Shown: piece by piece, positions 3,462 to 62,629 of the stretch
Layout: each line of letters opens with the position of its first letter
Numbering within the stretch: the stretch's first letter is position 1
From: Alphaproteobacteria bacterium
GTDB taxonomy: Bacteria; Pseudomonadota; Alphaproteobacteria; Rs-D84
DNA length: 64,000 bases
Direction of reading: 5' to 3'
Assembly (NCBI GenBank): GCA_015062545.1
Contig: SUUL01000002.1
Location: 19,175-83,174, forward strand
The notes under the pieces: model-generated
Seen by the model: the letters and a program-made list of their open reading frames with translations, nothing else
The model's database searches: none
Told to the model about the DNA's origin: nothing
Program-made: the position numbers and the translations under genes

Positions 3462-4880
3462 TTATGCTTTTTTGACGATTTTATATCCGTCTTTGCCGTC
3501 CAGTATTGTCCAACCGGCGGCATCTATTTGTGCGCGCAAACTGTCTGCGGTTGCCCAATCCTTGGCGGCCTTGGCATCGGCACGGGCAGCAGCCATTGCA
3601 ACAATTTCGTCTGGGGCGGATTCTGATTCCAGTGCCACCAGTTTTTTTGCACGGTCAATAAATTGCAATCCCAACAGTCGGTCGATAAATTCAAATAACG
3701 CCAATTTTGTCGCAGGGTTAACAGTCGCGTCTTTTAATAATTCTTGAATAACGACCAATGATTCCGCAGTTTTGAAATTGTCTGATGCGGGTGCCAAAAT
3801 TTTATCGTGCCATGTGTTATAAGCACTGGAATCCAGTTCGCCAATATTGTCAGCGTTCATTAAATCTGCAATTTTACGAACAATATTTTTATATCCATTT
3901 GCCGCCGCATCCAATGATTCAAATGAAAATTCCAGTGGTTGGCGATAATGGCTTTGCAGTAATAAATATCTGTATGCCATTGGGTCATATCCGCGTTCAA
4001 CCAATGTACGTACAGTATATGCAGTCCCGGCAGATTTAGACATTTTACCATCTTTTAACAACAACCATTCGAAATGTGTCCAATATGAAACCCATGGCGC
4101 ACCGACCAATGGTTCGCTTTGGGCGATTTCGTTAGAGTGGTGTACTTTTGCGTGTTCTTGTCCCCCAACATGCAGGTCAAAATGTTTGCCCAGGTATTTC
4201 ATACTCATGGCGCTGCATTCAATGTGCCAGCCTGGGAATCCGACACCCCATGGACTGTCCCATTCCATTTGGCGTTTGGTGTCTGTGGGTGAAAATTTCC
4301 ATAATGCAAAGTCTGTTGAATTTCTTTTACCACTGTCATCAATGCGGGCACCACCACGTAATTCGGATAAATTTTGACCGCCCAATGCGCCGTATGCAGC
4401 AAATTTAGATGTGTCATAGTATATTCCATCGCCCGGGATTTCGTATGTGTACCCCAATGCTTCTAACTGTTTTACTTGTTCAATTTGTTCGGCAATGTGA
4501 TCTGTGGCGCGTGGCGTGTATGTTGGACGAATAATGTTTAACAAGTCAGAATCATGTAAAAAGTTGTCTATGTATTTTTGTGCAACATCCCATACAGACA
4601 GGTTTTCACGTGCAGCGCCCTTTTCCATTTTATCGTCACCTGTATCACCGTCACTGGTTAAATGACCAACGTCTGTAAAGTTCATAACATGTGTGACATC
4701 GTATCCATTTTCGATAAATACACGTTTGATAATATCACTGTTGACAATTGTACGCATATTGCCAATATGTGCATCCCAGTAAACCGTTGGACCGCATGTA
4801 TAAAACCCCATTTTTCCGGGTTGTAATGGTTTAAATTCTTCCAATTTTCTGGACATGGTATTGTATAATTTAATTATCAT
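3462..4880 (-). CDS. cysS: Cysteine--tRNA ligase
   Basis: 472 aa. HIGN (class I HIGH) and KMSKS motifs; N-terminus LYNTMSRKLEEFKP typical of CysS. Confidence 0.95.
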   Translation of the reverse strand: MIIKLYNTMSRKLEEFKPLQPGKMGFYTCGPTVYWDAHIGNMRTIVNSDIIKRVFIENGYDVTHVMNFTDVGHLTSDGDTGDDKMEKGAARENLSVWDVAQKYIDNFLHDSDLLNIIRPTYTPRATDHIAEQIEQVKQLEALGYTYEIPGDGIYYDTSKFAAYGALGGQNLSELRGGARIDDSGKRNSTDFALWKFSPTDTKRQMEWDSPWGVGFPGWHIECSAMSMKYLGKHFDLHVGGQEHAKVHHSNEIAQSEPLVGAPWVSYWTHFEWLLLKDGKMSKSAGTAYTVRTLVERGYDPMAYRYLLLQSHYRQPLEFSFESLDAAANGYKNIVRKIADLMNADNIGELDSSAYNTWHDKILAPASDNFKTAESLVVIQELLKDATVNPATKLALFEFIDRLLGLQFIDRAKKLVALESESAPDEIVAMAAARADAKAAKDWATADSLRAQIDAAGWTILDGKDGYKIVKKA

Positions 4881-5073
4881 AATGCGTTCCTTTTCCGATT
4901 TAAGTTCGTTGAGATTTTAGTAATTGTGTGATTGAAATGCAAACAAATAAGTTCGCCAAAGATGCAAATTAACAACAACAGTAAAAATTGATAAAACGAA
5001 TTGTCATTGTGTGACTATTATGCCACATAAGATAAAACGAAGTCAAGAATCTTTGTTTTTTGGATTTTCGTGC

Positions 5074-5102
5074 TTGCATTTGATTTAGTGTTTATATATA
5101 AT
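5074..5102 (+). promoter_or_regulatory. Sigma-70-type promoter for tRNA-Ser
   Basis: TTGCAT-17 nt-TATAAT, ending 11 nt before the tRNA 5' end. Confidence 0.55.
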
Positions 5103-5113
5103 AACCCACGCAC

Positions 5114-5201
5114 GGAGCGTTGGCAGAGTGGTAATGCAGCAGATTGCTAATCTGTGACCGAAATTTTTGGTCCATAGGTTCGAGTCCTATACGCTCCGCC
5201 A
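5114..5201 (+). tRNA. tRNA-Ser (anticodon GCT)
   Basis: Acceptor GGAGCGT/ACGCTCC plus G-CCA. Anticodon loop TTGCTAA, long variable arm GACCGAAATTTTTGGTC, T-loop GGTTCGAGTCC. Confidence 0.9.
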
Positions 5202-5209
5202 GAAAATTC

Positions 5210-5236
5210 AACCCGCCATTTGGCGGGTTTAATTTT
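5210..5236 (+). terminator. Intrinsic terminator after tRNA-Ser
   Basis: ACCCGCC-ATTT-GGCGGGT followed by TTTAATTTT. Confidence 0.7.
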
Positions 5237-5275
5237 GTGCTGCGGACGTTTATTTTTACAATTTTTTGTAAACTT

Positions 5276-5298
5276 AAAATCCCCGTGTGGGGGATTTT
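5276..5298 (-). terminator. Terminator hairpin of Cys-rich gene A (duplicated at 26741-26764)
   Basis: AAAATCCCC-GTGTG-GGGGATTTT directly after the stop codon. Near-identical to the hairpin after the paralogue. Confidence 0.65.
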
Positions 5299-6948
5299 TT
5301 ATTCACTGTACGGGCAGTATGGATTGAATTGATATATACCATGCAACCCCCTGAATTTGTGATCGATTGCGATATGACAGTCCGAGATCTTTGTAGCGGC
5401 CTGTGGACTGGTGGCAGGAACTGTAATTTTGCTGCCGCTGGCGCTTAGGGCTGTGTGCGAGGGGCAATCTTTACATTCTGTCTGTCCCACCTGGTTTTGA
5501 TATGAACCCGCTTCACAATTATAACAATAGTCCATCCCTTCGTCATATTGATAGGTACCCTTTGGGCAATCAAGACACATTCCGCGTTTATTATATTGCC
5601 CCGCAGGACACCAGTCGCTGCAATTCAAGTTATAATTATAACCGGCGGATAATTCTTCAAGAAAAGACCCAAGTGTGACATCAGAACCTTCAAAAAATTC
5701 AAGGATAGGTTCGTATGCATAACTCATACGTGTCAGATTATTATGACAGATTTCCACTTCTTCTTCATTTTCCCATTCCGACATATTGTCGCACGCCGTA
5801 TCTCTTAACGTGTAATAATCTTCATTGGGCGAATCGTTATACGCATCAATTAAATATTCCAACACGTCACAACTATGTACGGGTGTACAAACATCGCCAT
5901 ATTCATCATGCAGATATGCGTATGGGCCATAAGGATCATCACCGACCGCATCCAATGCCGCATTATATATTTCACAATTTTTGGCTATATTATAGTGGCA
6001 ATCATAAGCAACTTCAACATCTGGAATAACCCGCCTACAAATATCGTAATAATTGCTTTGATACATATTTTCATATGTATAACCACATGTAAGTGTATCC
6101 CCGGTATTACGATAATGTGCATACACGGCATCCATTACATCGCAGCGTGGTCCAGATACTGATGCCAAACATTCCGTTCCGTAACGGTAATCAGCATATA
6201 AAAATATTTGTGTTAAATCAGAATCCTCCCACTCTGAGTCATGACACAACGAACGTATATAAGATTCTTTATTGTTCAGAATCTCAGCGTAGCAATCGTC
6301 ATCCCCGCCACATGCCGCTTCTATCCCGGTATTCAAAAGTTCACCATCATCTGAACAATTGTAAACATACGTACCCGATTCATTAGCATCATTATGCGCT
6401 TCAACCAACGCTTGCAAATACGCACAATCAACACTCGTGCCAGTTCCACCCCACACACGAGGGGACGCAGTACAACTGTCACATACATATCTTGTGCCTT
6501 CCTCTTCCCAAGAATAATTAATTGAAGTACATTCATCGGGAAAATCATCCTCTGTCGTAGAACAAACATTATACCTGTCAATATACCCATAACTATTTTC
6601 TATACAGCATCGCGCGCATCGTGAATCTGGATTACAGTCGGGCACAACCTCGCACGAATTTGGATCGTCCGTACAATACCCATCGTAACACTCGCTTTCA
6701 CAATTCTCGCCATAATAATCTGACAAACCATTTTCATGGCAACAATACCCATAGTCAGCACCATCGCCGCCACCGCCACCAGGTTCAAGAATTTCAGAAC
6801 AATCGTTTTCTGGGTTCGACACACATTCATCCCAAGAATCGTACTGATTGCCCCACTGATCTTCGTATTCTTCTGCATACGATATGGTGGGGGTAATAAA
6901 AATTGTAAATAATGCAATAAGCGCAGAAAACAGCACAGTTTTTTTCAT
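5299..6948 (-). CDS. Secreted Cys/Asp/Tyr-rich protein with C-terminal ephrin-receptor-like (GCC2_GCC3) repeats, paralogue A
   Basis: 549 aa. Signal peptide MKKTVLFSALIALFTIFITPTISYA. CPKGTYQYDEGMDYCYNCEAGSYQNQVGQTECKDCP near the C-terminus. RBS GGAGAG upstream. Confidence 0.8.
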   Translation of the reverse strand: MKKTVLFSALIALFTIFITPTISYAEEYEDQWGNQYDSWDECVSNPENDCSEILEPGGGGGDGADYGYCCHENGLSDYYGENCESECYDGYCTDDPNSCEVVPDCNPDSRCARCCIENSYGYIDRYNVCSTTEDDFPDECTSINYSWEEEGTRYVCDSCTASPRVWGGTGTSVDCAYLQALVEAHNDANESGTYVYNCSDDGELLNTGIEAACGGDDDCYAEILNNKESYIRSLCHDSEWEDSDLTQIFLYADYRYGTECLASVSGPRCDVMDAVYAHYRNTGDTLTCGYTYENMYQSNYYDICRRVIPDVEVAYDCHYNIAKNCEIYNAALDAVGDDPYGPYAYLHDEYGDVCTPVHSCDVLEYLIDAYNDSPNEDYYTLRDTACDNMSEWENEEEVEICHNNLTRMSYAYEPILEFFEGSDVTLGSFLEELSAGYNYNLNCSDWCPAGQYNKRGMCLDCPKGTYQYDEGMDYCYNCEAGSYQNQVGQTECKDCPSHTALSASGSKITVPATSPQAATKISDCHIAIDHKFRGLHGIYQFNPYCPYSE

Positions 6949-6973
6949 ATCAATCTCTCCGAATTGGTTGTTG

Positions 6974-7026
6974 TGCCTTATAAATGGTTTCTACGCCATG
7001 CCACGATAACACATCGTGACATGGTC
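6974..7026 (-). promoter_or_regulatory. Conserved 5' leader of the Cys-rich genes (dyad 6996-7024 plus GCGTAGAAACCAnTTATAAGGCA box)
   Basis: Part of a 104-nt block (6974-7077) repeated at 30018-30121. Substitutions within the dyad keep pairing on the minus-strand RNA. Confidence 0.6.
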
Positions 7027-7055
7027 ACTATAGTAAAATGCAGAATTTATTGCAA
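7027..7055 (-). promoter_or_regulatory. Sigma-70-type promoter of Cys-rich gene A
   Basis: Minus strand reads TTGCAA-17 nt-TATAGT. The same hexamers and spacing occur at 30071-30099. Confidence 0.6.
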
Positions 7056-7138
7056 CAGCAAAAATAGGTATTTTTTATGCTTTTTTTATGTGCGTATAAA
7101 TGGTAATTTTTTATGTGAAAAATTATGAAAATTTGGAT

Positions 7139-7167
7139 AAAAAAATCCCCACGCAGGTGGGGATTTT
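7139..7167 (-). terminator. Terminator of the cold-shock gene
   Basis: AAAATCCCC-8 nt-GGGGATTTT with a 7-A run on the plus strand (U-run on the minus strand). Confidence 0.7.
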
Positions 7168-7655: not shown

Positions 7656-9062
7656 TTACTTCTTGTAATATCTTTGCACTTCGTTCATTACAAAGTTAAA
7701 CAACTTGCCCGCCTGAGTGGTCGCAGGCATCGCCCAGTCACGCTGCATATATGGCATCGCAGCAACCAGAACAAAGCGTGCCATAAAATGGAAAATTCGC
7801 GCCTCTTGATGCTTGGACAATTTCGCAGGCGAATTTGATACACGAAATACTTCGTTTTCAATCGCATCGTCCAACTTCTCATTTATATTATCCAATATTT
7901 TTTGCGGATAATACAATGTGCATTCCTTGGGAAAGCCTTCAAATATGGAAATGTTGTTGTTACGTGTGTATAAAATATTCCAACCAACACGTTCAAATAA
8001 GTCTTCCAAGCAATTACATATCATGCGATTGTATGATTTTACACCATCTTCCATGAATGTGGCAAGGCGCGCCTCGATACTGTCAGATTTGGCGTTCTTC
8101 TTTTTACGCGCAGCCTCGTATGCGACATGGGTTTGACGTTCAAACTCAAAAAACGTACGTACCTGACAGATGATTTCCATCGGAATTACATGGTCCGCAC
8201 TGGGGCCAATGTTCAAGATTATCTTGGCATCACGATAGTTACGCGGATTTTGCATGTTGTAAAAACAATCGCGTACAGATAAAATTCTGTCGGGCATCAT
8301 TTCACGCAAGCGTTCAATAAATAAACGCGCCTGAGGTATCAAGTCAAATAAACACTTAACACGCCATACGTCTTGTAATCTGAAATGTGGCGCAGGTATC
8401 TTGTCAATCGCACGAACCAAATCAACCGCAATCTTTTCATGACCGCGACCAATTATCGCCAAGACCGCTTCGGATGCCGCGCTGATGTATTTTTCGTGAA
8501 ACTTTTCATGAATCTTGTCAGAAATCGCCTGGGCAGATGCATCGCGATCATGCGCAACCAAAACTTTGTAAGCGGCATGCGCAACATCGTTAACGTAATC
8601 ATCGTAATATTTGCCCGTCATCTTGTCCAGGGCACGGTCTATCTTCTTTTGCGCGCCAACAATAACGGTTACAATAGATGATACAGACAAATCAATTTTA
8701 TGCCCAGCAGAACTGGTAAAAAACTGATTACGCATTGGGTCTGCATCCAGACGATGATTTACAACGTATGGTGATAATGGGTTAATGTCCGCAATACGTA
8801 TTGGTTCATCAATCGCGCTGTCTGTGGCATAATCGTACTTCATAACCGCAGCCTTGGGCGCACCAAAGCATTTGCCCAAAACATAAAATACTTCGCGCAG
8901 CCATGACATACTGTCTGAATACAGTATCTTGAGGTATTCGCCCGCTTCGTCATTAATACGCCCAGATTCAATCGCACGATCAATCGCCGCCAGATTCTTT
9001 CTGTCGTTTTCTGTTGTGATATCCTGGGCCCAGGTATCAGAGCCTATGTGTGACATATCCAT
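7656..9062 (-). CDS. Hypothetical protein with a RelA/SpoT-like nucleotidyltransferase-fold core
   Basis: 468 aa, RBS AGGGGGGA, start 10 nt after the lysS stop. aa 228-320 carry WRVK...SVRD...NYRDAKIILN...MEIICQVRT...THVAYE in the order of RSH synthetase motifs. Confidence 0.7.
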   Translation of the reverse strand: MDMSHIGSDTWAQDITTENDRKNLAAIDRAIESGRINDEAGEYLKILYSDSMSWLREVFYVLGKCFGAPKAAVMKYDYATDSAIDEPIRIADINPLSPYVVNHRLDADPMRNQFFTSSAGHKIDLSVSSIVTVIVGAQKKIDRALDKMTGKYYDDYVNDVAHAAYKVLVAHDRDASAQAISDKIHEKFHEKYISAASEAVLAIIGRGHEKIAVDLVRAIDKIPAPHFRLQDVWRVKCLFDLIPQARLFIERLREMMPDRILSVRDCFYNMQNPRNYRDAKIILNIGPSADHVIPMEIICQVRTFFEFERQTHVAYEAARKKKNAKSDSIEARLATFMEDGVKSYNRMICNCLEDLFERVGWNILYTRNNNISIFEGFPKECTLYYPQKILDNINEKLDDAIENEVFRVSNSPAKLSKHQEARIFHFMARFVLVAAMPYMQRDWAMPATTQAGKLFNFVMNEVQRYYKK

Positions 9063-10718: not shown

Positions 10719-10795
10719 TGGTGCGAGCAAAGGGGCTCGAACCCTCGACCTCAACCTTGGCAAGGTTGCGCTCTAGCCAACTGAGCTACGCTCGC
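10719..10795 (-). tRNA. tRNA-Gly (anticodon GCC)
   Basis: Reverse complement GCGAGCGTAGCTCAGTTGGCTAGAGCGCAACCTTGCCAAGGTTGAGGTCGAGGGTTCGAGCCCCTTTGCTCGCACCA. Anticodon loop TTGCCAA. Confidence 0.9.
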
Positions 10796-12477: not shown

Positions 12478-13585
12478 TACCCCCTGTATAGTTTTTAATA
12501 AATTCTGATTTGAATTCGTGGAATCTGCCCTGCTCGATTGATTCACGAATGCCACGCATTAAATCCTGATAGAACCACAGGTTGTGTTGTGTCAATAATG
12601 TTGCGCCCAAGATTTCATTACACTTAATCAAGTGATGGATATATGCGCGCGACCGTTGGCACGCGGGACATTTACATTTGTCATCCAATGGGCGTGGGTC
12701 GTCCCTGAATTTAGCGTTGCGCATATTCATTGTGCCGTGTCTGGTAAATGCCTGGGCGGTACGACCGGCACGTGTTGGCATTACACAGTCAAACATATCA
12801 ATACCACGTTCAACCGCACCCAATATATCCAATGGTGTACCGACCCCCATCAGATAACGTGGCTTGTCCGCAGGCAATAATGGTGTTGTGGTCGCAATCA
12901 TGTCAAACATTACATTTTGGGGTTCGCCAACCGCCAGACCACCGACCGCATATCCATCAAAACCTATTTCCGTCAGGGCGCGCGCAGATTTTTCACGCAA
13001 ATCCGGAAAATCCGCCCCCTGAACAATACCAAAAATACCATAGCCCGGTCTGTCAATAAAGGCATCTTTGCTGCGGCGCGCCCAACGCGTAACCATATCT
13101 ACGTTCTTTTCAACACGTGCGCGTTCCGCAGGTAATTTCAGACATTCATCCAAAACCATTGTAATATTGGAATCAAGTTGATGTTGAATATGAACAGAAT
13201 CTTCGGGGCGCAAGAAATGTTTTTTCCCACCGTCAAAGTGGGATGTAAACTGAACGCCTTCTTCACTCATTTTCGTCAGGGTTGACAGGGACATCACCTG
13301 GAAACCACCGCTGTCGGTTAAAATCGGGCCATGCCAGCCACCAAACTTGTGCAGACCGCCCATTTGTTCAACCAAATCACCCCCCGGGCGCATCATCAAA
13401 TGATATGTGTTGCCCAAGATTACTTCGGTCCCGGTTGCGGCGACCTGATCCATGGTCAATGCCTTGACCGTGGCCGCAGTTCCAACCGCCATAAATGCAG
13501 GTGTTTGAAATGTCCCATGCGCCGTTTCAACCGCGCCACGGCGCGCATTACCATCTGTTGCAATCAAATTGAATTTCAGTGCCAT
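12449..13585 (-). CDS. tgt: tRNA-guanine transglycosylase (queuine tRNA-ribosyltransferase)
   Basis: 378 aa. TPAFMAVGT, LGNTYHL, DSGGFQ, and zinc site CKCPAC...H. Confidence 0.95.
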   Translation of the reverse strand: MALKFNLIATDGNARRGAVETAHGTFQTPAFMAVGTAATVKALTMDQVAATGTEVILGNTYHLMMRPGGDLVEQMGGLHKFGGWHGPILTDSGGFQVMSLSTLTKMSEEGVQFTSHFDGGKKHFLRPEDSVHIQHQLDSNITMVLDECLKLPAERARVEKNVDMVTRWARRSKDAFIDRPGYGIFGIVQGADFPDLREKSARALTEIGFDGYAVGGLAVGEPQNVMFDMIATTTPLLPADKPRYLMGVGTPLDILGAVERGIDMFDCVMPTRAGRTAQAFTRHGTMNMRNAKFRDDPRPLDDKCKCPACQRSRAYIHHLIKCNEILGATLLTQHNLWFYQDLMRGIRESIEQGRFHEFKSEFIKNYTGGNDDGQNEDK

Positions 13586-13596
13586 TTATGCCCATC

Positions 13597-14874
13597 CTAT
13601 GCCTTGAAATTTTCATTCCATATTTGTTTCAAATCTGCATCAAAATCTGCCCCTTGGGTTACAATGGCCATCGGACCATCAAAGTAACCGCGCGAATATT
13701 TTATTACATCGTCAACAGTTATGCGATTAAACATATCCAGTGTGTCATAAAAATCATATAAACAACCATGATGATGATAAAAACCCAACAGTTTATCACA
13801 ACGAGCTGTCGCAGATTCTAACCAATCCGCATCCCCCAATTTATCCTTGCGATTGTATCTGTCCAGAACATCAGGTGTAATTTCCGGAGAATTGTAAATC
13901 CGAAATGCATTTTGAGCAATCAAAGATACAACACGCGATATATTTGTCGCAGACGTTTCTGTACCAAAGCCATTCCACGAACGTTCATTATTGCCAACAA
14001 CAATACCACCAAAACCGTAAACCAAACCATTATCTTGACGTAAAACATTTGATATTTCTTTTGTCATAAAACGTTCAAAACGTCCCAACGCACAGTTCTT
14101 GGCACGATTTTCGTATGTATGTGGCCAAATATTTGGAAATAAAATACGCAGTTTTACGTTATTCTTGTCGGACTTGGTATTATGTGCAACACATGGTGTG
14201 TATGGTATATCTGTGTTTTCAGACACATCGTGTGTCGGTAAAAATGAAAATGATTTTTCCAACTGTTTTAACAGTGCATCTGTGTCCAGTATGCGACCAG
14301 AAATACCAATCGTACAATTTTTAGCAGACAAACGCCGCGATAAAAATTCCAACATCTGGTCACGTGTAAATGACATAATTGTATCTATTGTACCTAAATT
14401 TAATGTTGATGATACGGCATTACCAAATACTTTTTCCGACATAAAATCATTAAACTGACGCGATGGATTATCCAATGCACGGCGCAATTCGTCACATACG
14501 ACACTGCGTTCAATTTCTATCTTGGCCGGGTCAAACAACGAGTTCTGTAGTTGGTCACCAATAAAATCAACCAAAATATTTATATTTTCTGCCAGAATAC
14601 GACCGTAAAAGTTTAATGAACCAGAACCTGTGGATGCATTGCGAAAGCCACCATAATAATCCATATAATCATCAATAGAACGCTTGTTTGGAAAACGTGG
14701 GGTACCTTTGCACAGCATGTGTTCGCAAAAATGTGTTAATCCGTATTCATGTGGTAATTCATCACGTGAACCTGTGGCAAAAGCAACCTTGACAGATACC
14801 GTTTCCAATTCCATCGGATCCAAGATAACAGTTACACCATTAGATAATTTGTGCAACGTTGGATTATATTGCAT
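13597..14874 (-). CDS. M16 (pitrilysin/insulinase) family zinc peptidase
   Basis: HFCEHMLCKG inverted zinc motif HxxEH. Start trimmed to MQYNPTLHKLSNGVTV. Confidence 0.85.
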   Translation of the reverse strand: MQYNPTLHKLSNGVTVILDPMELETVSVKVAFATGSRDELPHEYGLTHFCEHMLCKGTPRFPNKRSIDDYMDYYGGFRNASTGSGSLNFYGRILAENINILVDFIGDQLQNSLFDPAKIEIERSVVCDELRRALDNPSRQFNDFMSEKVFGNAVSSTLNLGTIDTIMSFTRDQMLEFLSRRLSAKNCTIGISGRILDTDALLKQLEKSFSFLPTHDVSENTDIPYTPCVAHNTKSDKNNVKLRILFPNIWPHTYENRAKNCALGRFERFMTKEISNVLRQDNGLVYGFGGIVVGNNERSWNGFGTETSATNISRVVSLIAQNAFRIYNSPEITPDVLDRYNRKDKLGDADWLESATARCDKLLGFYHHHGCLYDFYDTLDMFNRITVDDVIKYSRGYFDGPMAIVTQGADFDADLKQIWNENFKA

Positions 14875-15907: not shown

Positions 15908-16294
15908 TTATCTTTGCTTTTCCTGACCCCATCTTTTGCGCAATAAATTTATTTGGTGCCGCTGTTGCAACTTTTCAAGCGTGCAACCATTTATGTCAAC
16001 TATATAACTGTTACCCCACCTTGGTGTCACAGACAAATTAACATTATTTTTCTTTTTTGTTTTGTATCGTATTGTATCACCAATTGACACATAGTCGCAG
16101 AAATGCTTATCCTTTATTGACATTTGTCTATCTGCCAGACCATCCCCGTCAATGTCCAAGATAAATGCAGTTGCATTTCTATTTACCCGCATGTCAATAA
16201 TCCTACCCTGAAGTGTTACAAGTTCTTTATGTGTACACCCAGCCAATATTCCTGCACCGGACAATGTCAAAAATACTTTTTTATACAGTTTCAT
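15908..16294 (-). CDS. Small lipoprotein with DIDGDGLAD calcium-site-like motif, tandem paralogue 1
   Basis: Start trimmed to MKLYKKVFLTLSGAGILAGC (lipobox). Ends QEKQR. Confidence 0.7.
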   Translation of the reverse strand: MKLYKKVFLTLSGAGILAGCTHKELVTLQGRIIDMRVNRNATAFILDIDGDGLADRQMSIKDKHFCDYVSIGDTIRYKTKKKNNVNLSVTPRWGNSYIVDINGCTLEKLQQRHQINLLRKRWGQEKQR

Positions 16295-26765: not shown

Positions 26766-29700
26766 TTATTTACTGTACGAACAACTGGGGTTAAATTTGT
26801 ACGTACCATGTCCACCCTTGAAACTGTAAGTGGATGGAATTTTGCACGCGCCAATATCGGTGGATGCGGTTGATTCCGTTGTACCATATACCGTTACATT
26901 GGTGGTGCTTTTTACACCGTATGCCGGACAATCTTTGCACGATGTTTTTCCTGTTTCATCTTGATAGTCGCCCACCGAGCATGCCTGTTTAGCATACGTA
27001 CCATTCCAACCTTCTTGCGAGAAATTTGTCAGCCCATAATACCCCTTTGGCACCGGTGTGTCACAGCGCATCATATCAATCGCACGGGCGGATATTGTGC
27101 TTTCACATGAATACACATACCCGTCCAGTTCGTCTGACCAGTCAGAGCCATTACATTCCTGTTCAAAATCATACGGATAGTAAAAATCCAATCCGACCAA
27201 ACAATTCCCGTCTGCATCATAATCTGCGCAATCAGTTTGATCCCACGATGAATAATAAACACACAATGGGCGACCCAGACTGTCAAAACCATATCCATTA
27301 CAGTCATAATCAGCGTAGTTGCCATCTTGGAATTTTGCACCCGATGCATCGTAATATCCACCGCCACATTCCAAGGCATTGTATGTACAATCCCAATTTT
27401 TGAAATCATCTGCTAATTCGCATTTCAAATCATAGATTTTCAGCCCCGCGTTTTCAATGGTATCATACGTATGGGCGCACTTTGTACTGCCCGGGGTCCA
27501 ATTTACAAAGTCTTCATACTTGGACGTTGGTAATTCGCAGTCATAGCATTGTCCATGCTTATTATATTGCCTTTCGCCACATGAATCGGCACATGTTAAC
27601 CCAATACGGTTACGAAAATTTTGTAATGTGGTGCTATAATCTTCCCTCATGTCATCATACCAATAATTCATACATCTTTCTTCAAATTCATAACGATCTC
27701 CAGGATAGACAACAAAGTTTAAATTATACTTGCATCTGTAATAATCTGCAGTACCAGGTTGATATGCATCCCCACATATTTCGTCAAGATTGCAATAGTT
27801 ACTATCCTCGTAATCAGAACCTGATTTGGTCATGTAATTATACCATACGTCTGCGAATTCACAGTTGTCATCCGCAACATCATCAATATGTTCCCCGTTA
27901 TAGCATCCCAAATATGTTGCAATATTATTCTCGTCGTACCAATCGCCATTATACAGCTCATTATAATCTTCGCAATTCAGCAATACGCGCGATATTGTCA
28001 GTGGGTCACTGTACGCTTCATTAAAATTACGATAATTGCACGCCGCATCGGTATAGCCATGTTCATCTATCTCATTAAACAGATGTTCGTAATTACACAA
28101 TGGTTTACAGTTTATGCCCAGTTCGTTTGCAGCCTTGTCCAACCAATACGACATCCGGTCAGAGTTTTGCAACTCATTTTCACCGATTTCATCCCAAAAA
28201 CTGTCGACCACATTCATGTATGCATCAACACGACCAGAATCGACCGCGTCTTGCAATGCTTTGTTCAGGTATTTTTGTGTATCGCTTGGGTATTTACTGA
28301 AACTGCCATAACATTCTGTTTCGTCGGTTTCTTCGTTTGCAGAACAAGTTATAGTATCGCTACCATTATAATAACTGTTTAAAAAACCTGCCAGTAAAAC
28401 GCAATTATAACCATCTGTACGTGTTGTATCAAAATAACATGACATGCCATTTGCCGCCAATAAATCTTGTGCATCAAAATTATTAAAATACCCTCCAGTA
28501 CAATCTATATCTATGTAATTTACTATCGCGTTACATGTGGATGTGCCATTTAACGCCTTGATACATTTGTTATATGCCACTGTACCAGATGCACCAAACT
28601 GGGAACAAACGTCTGACAATGCACCATTTTCCCCGTCTTCACATGGTGAAGCACAACTGTCAGTGTTATAATAATCAAATGCCGCCTTCAGATAACTACA
28701 TTCTTCATCATTCGTTGGACAGTTGTTTGCCATATAATCGCTTATATAATTCCTAACCGTTGAAGCGGCCGCTTCTTCATCCCCACCGTTTGTGTTGTAT
28801 TCGCTGTCCAACGCGGCAAGTATTTTTTTACAATGTTCAGATTCATTTTCAGATACATAGTCTTCACAATCGGAATCACCTTCACAGGTGTAGTAAGCAT
28901 CATTGAGACAAAATTCATTTCTGCGTTCAGAAATATCGCTGTATTCATCTTCATAGTAGCCCGGTCCCCACCAAGCATCAATAACCACATTGGCATAGTT
29001 GTCAGAACACTCAATATCGCCCAACAGCCCAGCAATTGGTACATAACACGATGCACCATATTGTTCGTTCGCATACATATTAACATCGGTCAGATTCAAG
29101 GTTGTGCCGGTATCTTCTCCTCCCCATACGCCTCGTATGATACTTGAATACGCACATGCGTTAATCTGCATATGGTTTTGACATTCCAAATCGTCCGATT
29201 CGCAGACTTTTAAAAACGATGGGGAATACTCGCCACAATCACTAGTGTCCACATAAATTGTGCCCAGATTTACACCAACCACAAAATTCTTTAAATAGTC
29301 ACAATTAATTTCAAAATCATGTCCCCCACAGTCCACACACATATCTGTTGCACACCTTCCGCTGCCTTCATCACCAGTGGTACATGAGTACGCCCATCCA
29401 TATTCGTCATAGACCGTTAAACCGAGACAGTCGTTCTGATCCACCACTTCTTCCGCTGCACACGGGTCGGATGTATCATAATCGGAACCGGGTTCTGAAT
29501 CGCATACTTCTTCCCAAGATGCACCTTGACCACACCAACCATCAAAACATTCATCGTTACAGCTGGACAGACTGGTAAATTCGCCCATATTGGTACCACA
29601 ACAGTAAAAGTAGCCATCAGCATCGCTGCCGCTATCTTCTTCATCATCCCAACCTTCACCCACACTGCCGCCAACACCTTCGCAACCGCCGGCAAGGCCA

Positions 29701-29870
29701 GATGACGCGTCAGACTCGCAATCTTCTTTGGAACCGTATATTTGCCCAGTCCAGTTTACCCACACATCACAATCCCCCGTATCTTCACAAGCGTACGATA
29801 CGGTTGGAGTCAAAACAGCCGGCACAAAAACAACAAACAACGATAATGCAAAAATAATCAGTTTCTTCAT
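26766..29870 (-). CDS. Secreted Cys/Asp/Tyr-rich protein with ephrin-receptor-like repeats, expanded paralogue B
   Basis: 1034 aa. Signal peptide MKKLIIFALSLFVVFVPAVLTPTVSYA. N-terminal block DADGYFYCCGTNMGEF...CNDECFDGWC and C-terminal CSVGDYQDETGKTSCKDCP...GGHGTYKFNPSCSYSK are homologous to gene A. Confidence 0.8.
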   Translation of the reverse strand: MKKLIIFALSLFVVFVPAVLTPTVSYACEDTGDCDVWVNWTGQIYGSKEDCESDASSGLAGGCEGVGGSVGEGWDDEEDSGSDADGYFYCCGTNMGEFTSLSSCNDECFDGWCGQGASWEEVCDSEPGSDYDTSDPCAAEEVVDQNDCLGLTVYDEYGWAYSCTTGDEGSGRCATDMCVDCGGHDFEINCDYLKNFVVGVNLGTIYVDTSDCGEYSPSFLKVCESDDLECQNHMQINACAYSSIIRGVWGGEDTGTTLNLTDVNMYANEQYGASCYVPIAGLLGDIECSDNYANVVIDAWWGPGYYEDEYSDISERRNEFCLNDAYYTCEGDSDCEDYVSENESEHCKKILAALDSEYNTNGGDEEAAASTVRNYISDYMANNCPTNDEECSYLKAAFDYYNTDSCASPCEDGENGALSDVCSQFGASGTVAYNKCIKALNGTSTCNAIVNYIDIDCTGGYFNNFDAQDLLAANGMSCYFDTTRTDGYNCVLLAGFLNSYYNGSDTITCSANEETDETECYGSFSKYPSDTQKYLNKALQDAVDSGRVDAYMNVVDSFWDEIGENELQNSDRMSYWLDKAANELGINCKPLCNYEHLFNEIDEHGYTDAACNYRNFNEAYSDPLTISRVLLNCEDYNELYNGDWYDENNIATYLGCYNGEHIDDVADDNCEFADVWYNYMTKSGSDYEDSNYCNLDEICGDAYQPGTADYYRCKYNLNFVVYPGDRYEFEERCMNYWYDDMREDYSTTLQNFRNRIGLTCADSCGERQYNKHGQCYDCELPTSKYEDFVNWTPGSTKCAHTYDTIENAGLKIYDLKCELADDFKNWDCTYNALECGGGYYDASGAKFQDGNYADYDCNGYGFDSLGRPLCVYYSSWDQTDCADYDADGNCLVGLDFYYPYDFEQECNGSDWSDELDGYVYSCESTISARAIDMMRCDTPVPKGYYGLTNFSQEGWNGTYAKQACSVGDYQDETGKTSCKDCPAYGVKSTTNVTVYGTTESTASTDIGACKIPSTYSFKGGHGTYKFNPSCSYSK

Positions 29871-29895
29871 TCCCCTTTCCCCCTGTTCAGGTAAT

Positions 29896-29998
29896 AAAAA
29901 ACCGCAATATTTTATTAAAGCGGTTGGAGGTTAGAAACTACTATAAGGAATAGCGGGCTTATTCAATTTATTCACCACCCTCCAACCCGTGGTTGGAG
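29896..29998 (-). promoter_or_regulatory. Attenuator-like insert in the leader of Cys-rich gene B
   Basis: On minus-strand RNA: CUCCAACC-ACG-GGUUGGAG hairpin. The alternative pairing is GGUUGGAGG with CCUCCAACC 48 nt downstream. Terminator-like AACCGC-14 nt-GCGGUU-UUUU shares AACC with that alternative helix. Confidence 0.45.
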
Positions 29999-30017
29999 TG
30001 ATTTTCATCAATTCTGA

Positions 30018-30070
30018 TGCCTTATAAGTGGTTTCTACGCCACATCATGACAACTCATCATGACATGATC
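30018..30070 (-). promoter_or_regulatory. Conserved 5' leader, copy B (dyad 30040-30068)
   Basis: Same 104-nt block as 6974-7077, at a constant offset. Confidence 0.6.
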
Positions 30071-30099
30071 ACTATAGTAAAATGCAAAATTTATTGCAA
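30071..30099 (-). promoter_or_regulatory. Sigma-70-type promoter of Cys-rich gene B
   Basis: Minus strand reads TTGCAA-17 nt-TATAGT. Confidence 0.6.
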
Positions 30100-30273
30100 C
30101 AGCAAAAATAGGTATTTTTTAGTAAAATAAACATAAACAAAATTTTTGCGAAAAAAAATTGTAAAATATACCGCTGCTGTTTCCTGCGCCCGGGGGATTA
30201 ACGGTCAATGGTTAAATAATATCAGTAAATAAAAATTTTATATTATGTAATATGAAGTTTCTTAAAAACATAT

Positions 30274-44524: not shown

Positions 44525-44950
44525 ATGATAAAACCAATAAAATTAACCGACACACAACGCATGCGCGTTGAAGAAATGAAGCGCATGACCCCACAAGAAT
44601 GGGATGCCCTGTGCAAAAACTGCGGTATATGTTGCTTATATAAAGCTTCAACGGGCAATCAAGTGGTTTATCTGTCCAAGTGTTGCAAATATCTGAACAA
44701 GGACACAAAACAATGTGAAATATACGCAGACAGGTTAACTCATCGTGGCAGCTGCTGCGAAAAAGTTACATTGAATGTTGTGTTAGATGGCGAATTAGTT
44801 CCCCGCACATGCGAATATGTCGAATATATTTATGGCCCTGCCCCAGAACAAATTAATTTAGACTGGTCTATGGTGACAAAACATGAACCAGGCACACCTA
44901 TGACACCAAAAGATTTTATACAAGAATCCGTATTGTGGAATCACAGATAA
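44525..44950 (+). CDS. YkgJ-family cysteine-cluster protein
   Basis: CKNCGICC...CKYL...CEIY pattern. Confidence 0.6.
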   Translation: MIKPIKLTDTQRMRVEEMKRMTPQEWDALCKNCGICCLYKASTGNQVVYLSKCCKYLNKDTKQCEIYADRLTHRGSCCEKVTLNVVLDGELVPRTCEYVEYIYGPAPEQINLDWSMVTKHEPGTPMTPKDFIQESVLWNHR

Positions 44951-62326: not shown

Positions 62327-62629
62327 TTATCGTGTCTTGTAATGGTCACACAGTTTGGCGACTTCGTGTGCCACGCCAACCATTACCCGCCTTACATCGG
62401 CAAAATCTTTGCAGCCCATTGTTTCCATTTCCTGCATTGTTTTGGTGATACTGTGGGTGTTACCATTTTTATCGGTGTAACTTTCTATTTTTTTACCGTC
62501 AACACATGGAAAAAACACGTCATTTACACACTTTACCCCCAATTCACAATACTTGTCGCAACCATGGCAACAACAAGCGTCACAGCCATTTCCAAGTCGT
62601 ACCGAATGCAAATCTATATTTTCTAACAT
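62327..62629 (-). CDS. Small Cys-cluster protein
   Basis: ATG at 62627-62629 after RBS AAGGAAAAG (the listed ORF starts at an upstream GTG). GCDACCCHGCDKYCELGVKC...PC. Confidence 0.55.
   Translation of the reverse strand: MLENIDLHSVRLGNGCDACCCHGCDKYCELGVKCVNDVFFPCVDGKKIESYTDKNGNTHSITKTMQEMETMGCKDFADVRRVMVGVAHEVAKLCDHYKTR

Follow-up and report, generated by a model that had tools for sequence, protein, structure and literature searches.

Locus and gene product

The DNA analysed here, referred to as the window, comprises 64,000 nucleotides of contig SUUL01000002.1 (assembly GCA_015062545.1) from an alphaproteobacterium of the lineage Rs-D84. Our subject is one of its genes, in the following called the target, for which an earlier annotation made from the sequence alone (the original prediction) had proposed a secreted cysteine-rich protein ending in repeats of the ephrin-receptor type. 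The open reading frame (ORF) and the sequence quoted for it were found where they had been placed, at 5299-6948 on the minus strand, with 549 residues. The target has a paralogue in the window, and both form a previously undescribed family of two genes; the kind of protein, i.e. variable exported or surface proteins, is already known. This paralogue, the promoter region shared by both genes, the orphan status of the family and its mosaic hypervariability are more informative than the features noted originally. The coordinates are collected in Table 1.

Table 1. Features of the target, its paralogue and their upstream regions (window coordinates)
Feature	Position	Strand	Basis
Target coding sequence, 549-residue secreted (predicted) acidic Cys-rich protein	5299..6948	minus	ORF list, ATG start
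Signal peptide, residues 1-25, predicted cleavage SYA/EE	6874..6948	minus	sequence features
N-terminal variable cassette, residues 27-263, 22 Cys including invariant CC 69-70	6160..6870	minus	allele comparison
Middle region, residues 264-440, 9 Cys	5629..6159	minus	allele comparison
Ephrin_rec_like (GCC2_GCC3-type) Cys hairpin repeats, residues 441-496	5461..5628	minus	Pfam PF07699, PDB matches
Conserved C-terminal tail, residues 497-549, last Cys pair 524 and 545	5302..5460	minus	common to paralogue and other Enterousia proteins
Shine-Dalgarno-like GGAGAG	6955..6960	minus	6 nt before ATG; read from sequence
25-nt element TGGCGTAGAAACCAYTTATAAGGCA	6974-6998	minus	within shared upstream region
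Upstream region of ~105 nt, ~92% identical to that of the paralogue, including promoter-like hexamers	6974..7077	minus	alignment
Putative sigma-70-like promoter, TTGCAA-17-TATAGT	7027..7055	minus	consensus scan
Terminator-like hairpin 3' of target	5210..5229	minus	consensus scan
Second hairpin and T-run, after csp	~7140-7160		read from sequence; absent from consensus-scan list
Paralogue, 1034 residues, 69 Cys, pI 4.05	26766..29870	minus	survey of window for Cys-rich ORFs; BLASTP against target
Paralogue variable central cassette, residues 291-760	27591-29000	minus	comparison with allele P0005
Paralogue copy of shared promoter and 5' region	30018..30122	minus	alignment

The mature target protein carries 41 cysteines (7.8%, compared to 1.8% in the other long ORFs of the window) and is strongly acidic, with 101 Asp and Glu residues against 23 Lys and Arg (isoelectric point, pI, 4.05). 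Tyrosine amounts to 9.9%, compared to 4.3% in the other ORFs. Cysteine content, acidity and tyrosine were therefore as originally described, while asparagine, which had been named together with tyrosine, is only mildly raised (6.7% versus 5.3%). The identical protein, in the following allele A, was found on 14-21 public contigs from NCBI, JGI and ENA. The GC content of the gene and its GC content at third codon positions (GC3) agree with the genome values, and thus show no sign of a recent foreign origin. Tandem repeats were sought in and around the target and none were found. With a promoter-like element, a ribosome-binding site and terminator-like hairpins on both sides, the target appears to be monocistronic, i.e. 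an independent unit.

Read by eye, the N-terminus (MKKTVLFSALIALFTIFITPTISYA/EE) consists of a KK n-region, a hydrophobic core of ~18 residues, and proline, serine and alanine at positions -6, -3 and -1. On this manual reading (MKK / TVLFSALIALFTIFITPTI / SYA-EE) it has the properties of a substrate of the Sec pathway and signal peptidase I, namely a positive n-region, a hydrophobic h-region, small residues at -3 and -1 and no lipobox cysteine at +1. The motif TPTxSYA is invariant across all family members. Beyond residue 40 the Kyte-Doolittle mean over 19 residues does not exceed 0.62, and therefore no membrane span follows the signal peptide; both points agree with the cleavable signal peptide without later hydrophobic span that had been proposed. 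In a search for bacterial sorting and anchor signals (PEP-CTERM, LPXTG, the C-terminal domain of type 9 secretion, autotransporter barrel), NCBIfam gave no family at E<=10 and Pfam only PF07699.

The Ephrin_rec_like module and the C-terminal tail

With the Pfam model of Ephrin_rec_like (PF07699, curated gathering cut-off 23.1 bits), the whole protein scored 32.5 bits and its 109 C-terminal residues (441-549) 43.6 bits (E 2.6e-11). Eight shuffles of these 109 residues, of the same composition, gave no match to Ephrin_rec_like or any other cysteine-repeat family. The framework of the family, C-x2-G-x-[YF] followed by C-x2-C every ~16-17 residues, is present: the module has cysteines at 443, 447, 458, 461, 475, 478, 492 and 495, where 447, 458/461, 475/478 and 492/495 follow the periodicity, G-x-Y stands after the first cysteine of each unit and the three CxxC pairs are 17 residues apart. 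The string of repeats quoted in the original prediction corresponds to residues 447-496 and not, as labelled, to 443-496; the nucleotides given for it (5461-5622) do encode residues 443-496. A single-sequence search of the PDB matched the Chlamydomonas mastigoneme protein Mst1 (8tx1) via its Ephrin-like repeats, and a family profile of the C-terminal module matched the cysteine-rich domain of EphA2 (8trs, E 0.0019) as well as Mst1. The identity to these eukaryotic repeats is low and largely limited to the Cys/Gly/Tyr framework. Altogether, the original assignment to Ephrin_rec_like was upheld by the Pfam cut-off, the shuffles and the PDB matches. The module had also been called characteristic of eukaryotes and uncommon in bacteria, and the literature treats it likewise, as eukaryotic in origin with few bacterial occurrences ascribed to horizontal transfer (PMC6993872).

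The other 415 mature residues gave no match in Pfam at E<=10, and neither did a three-sequence family profile of the non-Ephrin region in the PDB at the same threshold. The middle region may be mostly helical, according to a low-confidence AlphaFold2 model only.

The module is followed by a conserved tail of the pattern ...C-x-I-x5-F-x-G-x-HG-x-Y-x-F-N-P-x-C-x-Y-S-E. Repeat and tail together also end small, secreted Cys-rich proteins of ~190 residues in other Enterousia species (L080/P0007, L069 and P0008), and a word-indexed homologue search with the profile of the C-terminal module gave P0007 and P0008 only. The genes of these small P0007-type proteins lie near the same lysS-orf468 block as the target. 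In a survey of 1.28 Mb of Enterousia DNA, the motif C..G.[YFW]...C..C was found in 15 ORFs. Three of these other candidate secreted proteins, all large, exceed the Pfam cut-off for PF07699, and two of the three combine the module with typically bacterial parts, i.e. Big_2 domains in one and BspA-like repeats, recognised by eye, in another.

Some further observations were made on these relatives. In L080, the small Cys-rich genes have conserved upstream elements with (TA)12 (12925-12955) and (TA)10 (16135-16160) tracts between promoter-like hexamers, which makes them candidate phase-variable promoters; such (TA)10-12 tracts occur only upstream of these distant P0007-type genes in L080 and not at the target. 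A third copy in L080 is a fragment without start codon (13666-13947). The large Enterousia ORFs (L004:1-3303, L006:1-3072, L007, L033, L054, L063, L070:2067-6113 and L078), with bodies of Big_2, Listeria-Bacteroides repeat, BspA-like repeat and Ephrin-like units and in some cases signal-peptide-like N-termini, have a different C-terminal ending in common, roughly ...K-L-[KR]-V-x3-G-x2-Y-x3-D-D..., which may be a second genus-wide sorting or anchor domain.

A paralogue with a shared promoter region

The paralogue starts with a signal peptide of the same type as that of the target (MKKLIIFALSLFVVFVPAVLTPTVSYA). BLASTP aligned the N-terminal domains of both proteins with 25% identity over ~310 residues (E 3e-10), and their C-termini, consisting of one Ephrin-like repeat and the 53-residue tail, with 35% identity (E 5e-15). 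The tail ending common to both is ...F-x-G-x-HG-x-Y-x-F-N-P-x-C-x-Y-S-[EK]. Searches with both proteins against NCBIfam, PHROGs and PADLOC gave no matches, which speaks against an assignment to known bacterial families, to phage proteins or to defence components.

The two genes resemble each other much more closely in their upstream DNA than in their proteins. The promoter hexamers of the target recur with the same spacing upstream of the paralogue, at 30071-30099, and the 25-nt element has exactly two occurrences in the window, one before each paralogue, compared to zero expected by chance. The same element stands upstream of every allele that was fetched. Shared control of the two genes is likely in view of this nearly identical promoter and 5' region, and the target and its paralogue are probably co-regulated.

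In the case of the paralogue, the leader contains ~120 extra nucleotides (29871-30017, minus strand) between the shared promoter element and the start codon, with a hairpin (CCAACCACGGGTTGG) and a hairpin followed by a T-run (CCGC...GCGGTTTTTT). The latter resembles a terminator or attenuator within a leader. Elsewhere in L084 (9473-9582), the leader is present in a further copy with 85% identity. An Rfam scan gave no family in the leader regions, the two tRNAs of the window being its only matches. In a more distant relative (allele P0009, L090:3147-6367 and L091:768-3988, compared to 26770-30123 of the window), the whole paralogue unit including the promoter is inverted relative to rne and rpsD; a search for inverted repeats able to drive this inversion gave only weak matches of 15-22 nt, which flank the window unit. 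The window contains two further small Cys-rich ORFs, one of 100 residues (62327-62629, minus strand, 10% Cys, no Pfam match) and one of 141 residues (44525-44950, plus strand, 7.1% Cys). Both are without signal peptide and, by eye, unrelated to the family.

Alleles, cassette replacement and rate of change

Four target alleles were obtained from cluster look-ups, namely A (window), B (P0011/P0012), C (P0013) and D (P0015, 583 residues). The flanking genes orf466, csp and trcR, plus lysS and rpoD where these were fetched, show 99-100% protein identity in all three comparisons, with nonsynonymous divergence (dN) of 0.000-0.005, synonymous divergence (dS) of 0.03-0.14 and dN/dS of 0.00-0.09. The corresponding values for the target are dN 0.031 (versus C) and 0.047 (versus B) and dN/dS 0.75 and 0.69, and for the N-terminal domain the latter ratio rises to 0.89 (C) and 1.44 (B). 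Nonsynonymous to synonymous changes (N:S) between A and C (L087) amounted to 40.5:13.5 in the target and 13.5:94.5 in five flanking genes (Fisher p 1e-14), and between A and B (L088) to 60.5:21.5 and 12.5:92.5 (Fisher p 2e-18), i.e. about 3:1 in the target compared to 1:7 in the flanks, in strains whose flanking housekeeping genes are ~99% identical. The cassettes between the conserved ends accumulate amino-acid changes about ten times faster than neighbouring genes. The middle region is 80-95% identical between alleles at the protein level (dN/dS 0.37-0.51), and the C-terminal module and tail are, with 94-95%, the conserved, slowest-evolving end of the protein.

In the case of alleles A and D, the pattern is that of a replacement. 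The 3.5 kb upstream are 98.6% identical, and the last ~240 nt before the start and the codons of the signal peptide are 100% identical. From codon 27-28 to codon ~263 nucleotide similarity is lost (44% amino-acid identity, dS 1.87), and it then returns at 89%. The divergence thus starts within two codons of the predicted signal-peptide cleavage site. Such a pattern is the signature of an old, divergent cassette that would have been imported by recombination. A similar picture was obtained for the paralogue by comparing the window to genome GCA_045593615.1 (P0005), where the ends are 86-95% identical and residues 291-760 only ~40%, with dS from 1.5 to saturation, next to an rne gene with 100% protein identity. 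In this same pair of genomes the target is 94% identical, so that the variation of one gene is independent of that of the other. Recent gene conversion between the paralogues was considered and rejected, as the N-terminal domains are 24-28% identical to the paralogue; the exception is one 107-residue stretch of allele D with 40% identity to P0006.

The alleles are not assembly artefacts, since D occurs in three independent assemblies from two studies and A on the many contigs mentioned above. For the cassettes that diverged long ago dN/dS is 0.29-0.33, with intact reading frames; together with the retention of cysteines this indicates that the proteins are under long-term constraint, and not in decay or random. 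In L083 (4320-4330), a copy of allele D has lost a G from a GGGG run, which splits the gene into ORFs of 358 and 244 residues. A slippage-prone tract was rejected as explanation, because the copies in L085 and L086 are intact, and the deletion is probably an error or a sporadic mutation.

The cysteines are kept within the replaced parts. All four target alleles have exactly 41, and in the replaced N-terminal cassette (A versus D) 21 of 22 are retained at 38.9% identity of the non-cysteine residues. In the paralogue cassette, 24 of 25 and 27 of 27 aligned cysteines are retained at 36-44% non-cysteine identity. A vicinal CC pair is invariant in the family. Moreover, the cysteine count is odd in ten out of ten family sequences: 41 (P0001, P0011, P0013, P0015), 69 (P0004, P0014, P0005), 65 (P0006), 67 (P0009) and 13 (P0007). 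This is suggestive of one unpaired thiol or of an intermolecular disulfide.

Organism, range of the family and neighbourhood

The closest relatives of the neighbouring lysS (84-96% amino-acid identity) come from metagenome-assembled genomes under the names Candidatus Enterousia or 'Alphaproteobacteria bacterium', which were derived from the guts of cattle, sheep, yak, deer, horse and human. Enterousia has been assigned to the uncultured order Rs-D84, with genomes mostly below 1 Mbp that are without tricarboxylic acid cycle, respiratory chains and standard transporters; a partner-dependent lifestyle has been proposed (PMC12306168). Both the genus and the order are widespread in the guts of ruminants, horses, chickens and humans (PMC12306168). 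The organism is thus Candidatus Enterousia, living in animal guts, and the original suggestion of a eukaryote-associated alphaproteobacterium came close to this.

The family itself is found in very few genomes. A word-indexed search of 5.8 billion proteins with the target returned only itself, a diverged allele (P0002) and an unrelated multi-repeat protein with NCD3G and Ephrin_rec_like domains (P0003), and the same search with the paralogue returned only itself, P0005 and P0006. A HMMER scan of 1.84 billion cluster representatives with a profile of the N-terminal and middle regions gave four proteins at E<=0.001, all of this clade, in accordance with the statement that the remaining ~440 residues belong to no known family. 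On these searches, the family is an orphan of a very narrow clade. With tblastn, the target was absent from 80 syntenic loci of related species. JGI metagenome contigs were scanned for the peptides YDCHYNI and YQYDEGM and for a shared promoter 22-mer, without any hit; this collection is apparently without the species. In the literature on Cys-rich proteins of Rs-D84 and on bacterial Ephrin_rec_like proteins, no description of the family was found.

The target lies next to csp, tRNA-Ser and cysS. Across the 80 related species, the genes that come after a conserved block lysS-orf468-csp are entirely different, and several of those at the spot after csp are other Cys-rich secreted ORFs. A Cys-rich ORF of L073 at the same position was considered as a homologue and rejected, since the similarity was not significant (E 0.26). 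The tRNA-Ser(GCT) gene (5114-5201, plus strand) is directly downstream of the target and convergent to it, and a tRNA-Gly(GCC) gene (10719-10795, minus strand) is found a short way upstream of lysS. At both of these tRNA borders the 80 related loci show an accumulation of contig ends, with 12 in the first kb upstream of lysS and 17 between 1 and 3 kb downstream, compared to 0-3 in most of the other 1-kb bins and 6 at the most. Between lysS and csp, an ORF of 468 residues (7656-9062, minus strand) without Pfam or PADLOC match stands beside lysS in 79 of the 80 species.

Two further differences were seen around the target. The cysS gene of GCA_045593615.1 (L087:8335-9768, 477 residues) and that of the window (3462-4880, 472 residues) have 36.5% protein identity, compared to 99-100% for the genes on either side (trcR, rpoD, csp, lysS). 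At this position, one cysS has apparently been replaced by a distant one. Strains with alleles B and D carry an insert of ~0.8 kb between the target and tRNA-Ser/cysS (L085:5125-6347, L086:5612-6543 and L088:5484-6734), in the region equivalent to 4881-5298 of the window, from which it is absent. The insert carries a GIY-YIG ORF of 93-102 residues and duplicates ~72 nt, comprising the target terminator and the 3' end of tRNA-Ser. Inverted repeats of 38 nt enclose its core of ~510 nt, whose orientation in L085 is opposite to that in L088 (97.5% identical). The insert looks like a small mobile or invertible element that targets the tRNA.

Interpretation and rival explanations

At the level of the sequence, the analysis establishes the export signal, the membership of the module in its family, the conservation of cysteines, the orphan range, the shared cis element, the fast evolution and the replacement of cassettes. 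The explanation that we hold to be somewhat better than even is that of an exported cysteine scaffold with variable, exposed cassettes, i.e. a surface or contact protein under diversifying selection. After export by Sec, the cysteine framework, probably in the form of disulfides as in solved Ephrin_rec_like structures, would maintain a fold that resists proteases. The conserved C-terminal hairpins and tail would act as a stalk or as a piece for attachment or oligomerisation, and the variable cassette would be the face that contacts something outside the cell, possibly host mucosa or antibody, a partner cell or a phage. Exposure to such contacts would in turn lead to diversifying selection, with host antibody, phage or a partner-cell receptor as the selective agent and with homologous recombination exchanging cassettes among strains. 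Two further observations speak for this: the two family genes occupy 4.7 kb of a genome below 1 Mbp, and both the variable genes and the clustered contig ends lie at the spot after csp. Disulfide bonding, passage through the outer membrane with surface exposure, binding, and a role as adhesin or contact protein are what this explanation would add to the sequence-level observations.

Several points weigh against it. An outer-membrane anchor, autotransporter barrel, lipobox or known C-terminal sorting signal was not recognised with Pfam and NCBIfam, and therefore the protein could remain periplasmic. The formation of disulfides needs an oxidising system, while respiratory chains are reportedly absent (PMC12306168), and in the reducing environment of the gut lumen the cysteines might serve to bind metal rather than to form disulfides. 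In this comparison of four alleles, a dN/dS close to 1 between similar alleles can be explained by relaxed constraint no less than by positive selection. Each allele is stable across many samples, with no sign of rapid switching within strains. Support at the level of the fold is missing as well, as the AlphaFold2 models had low mean confidence (pLDDT, predicted local distance difference test) of 33.8 for the whole target with a 5-sequence alignment and 41 for the C-terminal module with an 11-sequence alignment.

The closest variant of this explanation is a protective coat, i.e. an abundant, acidic and disulfide-locked surface layer whose variability would serve solely to evade antibodies or phages, in analogy to the coats formed by the variant-specific surface proteins (VSPs) of Giardia and the immobilisation antigens (i-antigens) of ciliates. 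The acidic pI, the high and conserved cysteine content, the conserved C-terminus with a variable remainder and the strong-looking promoter and ribosome-binding site would all suit a coat. We nevertheless regard it as unlikely, because no membrane anchor or self-assembly domain was recognised (Pfam, NCBIfam), bacterial S-layer proteins are typically poor in cysteine, and the 64 kb contain only two family genes and no archive of silent copies. Less probable again is the host mimicry that had been proposed originally, in which repeats acquired from a eukaryote would imitate surface proteins of the Eph-receptor or SCUBE type and engage host partners. The score of PF07699 above its cut-off, EphA2, Mst1 and P0003 as best matches outside the family, the view of the domain as eukaryotic with rare bacterial cases by transfer (PMC6993872) and the life in animal guts can all be brought forward for it. 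However, PF07699 is a generic cysteine-hairpin spacer of Eph receptors and not their ephrin-binding domain, and Ephrin_lbd, fn3 and kinase domains are absent according to Pfam. The module also recurs in other candidate secreted proteins of Enterousia, in two of three beside typically bacterial parts, it is the slowest-evolving part of the target, its likeness to eukaryotic repeats hardly extends beyond the Cys/Gly/Tyr framework, and GC and GC3 are genome-like. The mimicry reading was therefore not borne out.

A periplasmic buffer of metals or thiols, in which cysteines and acidic residues bind metals or buffer redox state and the protein never leaves the periplasm, could account for the 7.8% cysteine with CxxC and CC motifs, the strong negative charge and the lack of a recognised signal for export beyond the periplasm (Pfam, NCBIfam), and the reported absence of respiratory chains would complicate an oxidation of the DsbB type (PMC12306168). 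A housekeeping buffer would not be expected to be the orphan of a narrow clade, nor to undergo cassette swaps and N:S changes of 3:1 beside genes at 1:7. Moreover, the Ephrin_rec_like fold is disulfide-bonded in solved structures, and we give this explanation little weight. Even less credence is given to the remaining two. A secreted polymorphic toxin or bacteriocin, with the variable part as toxic or receptor-binding domain, would be secreted, strain-variable and mosaic, as the target is predicted or seen to be; yet polymorphic toxins vary at the C-terminus, which in the target is the conserved end, and there are neither toxin domain nor adjacent immunity gene among csp, tRNA-Ser and cysS nor any PADLOC or PHROG match. 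Equally improbable is a decaying, functionless gene whose high dN/dS reflects lost constraint. The values of 0.7-1.4 between close alleles and the 1-nt deletion in the GGGG run of the L083 copy would fit decay, but the frames are intact in four alleles and four further paralogue sequences despite dS up to ~1.9, the long-term dN/dS is 0.29-0.33, cysteines are retained almost perfectly, promoter and signal peptide are perfectly conserved between A and D, and the allele of L083 is intact in L085 and L086.

Comparison with known systems

In relation to the PF07699 modules of known structure (EphA2 cysteine-rich domain, 8trs and 3mbw; Mst1, 8tx1), target residues 441-507 match the model above its cut-off with the same C-x2-G-x-Y...C-x2-C-P periodicity and spacing of CxxC pairs. 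Unlike in EphA2 and Mst1, there are only two to three repeats, at the extreme C-terminus of a bacterial protein with predicted Sec export, and they are preceded by ~415 residues of no known family and followed by a genus-specific tail of 53 residues. Compared to Eph receptors, the ligand-binding, fn3, transmembrane and kinase parts are missing (Pfam, hydropathy).

Giardia VSPs and ciliate i-antigens are likewise exported and rich in cysteine, with many CxxC motifs, a conserved terminal part and a variable remainder, and belong to a gut organism; in them, too, the cysteine framework is kept while surface residues vary. These are eukaryotic proteins with membrane or GPI (glycosylphosphatidylinositol) anchors, drawn from large repertoires of genes among which a single clone switches. 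The target family, in contrast, consists of the two genes seen, has no recognised anchor and varies between strains, and the Pfam VSP model gave no match to the target at E<=10, nor is there a C-terminal hydrophobic span.

Among bacteria, Mycoplasma Vsp-type lipoproteins keep promoter and signal peptide constant, and Anaplasma Msp2/P44 keep both ends around a hypervariable core. The near-identical promoter, 5' region and signal peptide of paralogues with differing mature parts resemble the former, and the hypervariable central or N-terminal cassette between conserved ends resembles the latter; the host bacterium has a reduced genome as in these comparisons. Sequence similarity to either, a lipobox and size variation by tandem repeats are lacking, and the window has no archive of donor pseudogenes. 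As in variable surface families of the contingency type, there is an excess of nonsynonymous change together with cassette replacement (dS >=1.5 inside ~99% identical flanks). A further comparison is with the other Cys-rich candidate secreted or surface proteins of the same genus. Those of L006, L070 and L004 likewise contain Ephrin_rec_like hairpins, and the P0007-type proteins (L080, L069) share the C-terminal repeat and tail with the target. They differ in their unrelated N-terminal parts (Big_2, Listeria-Bacteroides repeat, LRR-like, i.e. resembling leucine-rich repeats), the large ones end in a different C-terminal domain, and none matches the first ~415 mature residues of the target.

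Implications

The Ephrin_rec_like hairpin, usually called a eukaryotic invention, is a routine building block of secreted proteins in one bacterial genus, which bears on how the origin of the module is described. The conserved C-terminal repeat and tail, common to otherwise unrelated secreted proteins of the genus, may mark an undescribed signal for sorting or attachment. As a more speculative proposal, which we consider doubtful, the two genes could be the contact determinants of a partner-dependent bacterium, i.e. a bacterial counterpart of Giardia VSPs and ciliate surface antigens on the same eukaryote-type scaffold, in which the swapped cassettes would set the partner (a host, a protist or another bacterium), antibody or phage that each strain meets and the repeat and tail would be a new signal for export or attachment to the envelope. 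In practice, the family proteins could be used as bait in pull-down experiments, as targets of antibodies for imaging and as markers of strains. Overall, a probably co-regulated, fast-evolving and cassette-swapping pair of predicted secreted proteins in so small a genome makes strong candidates for the molecules with which this bacterium touches its partner or its host.

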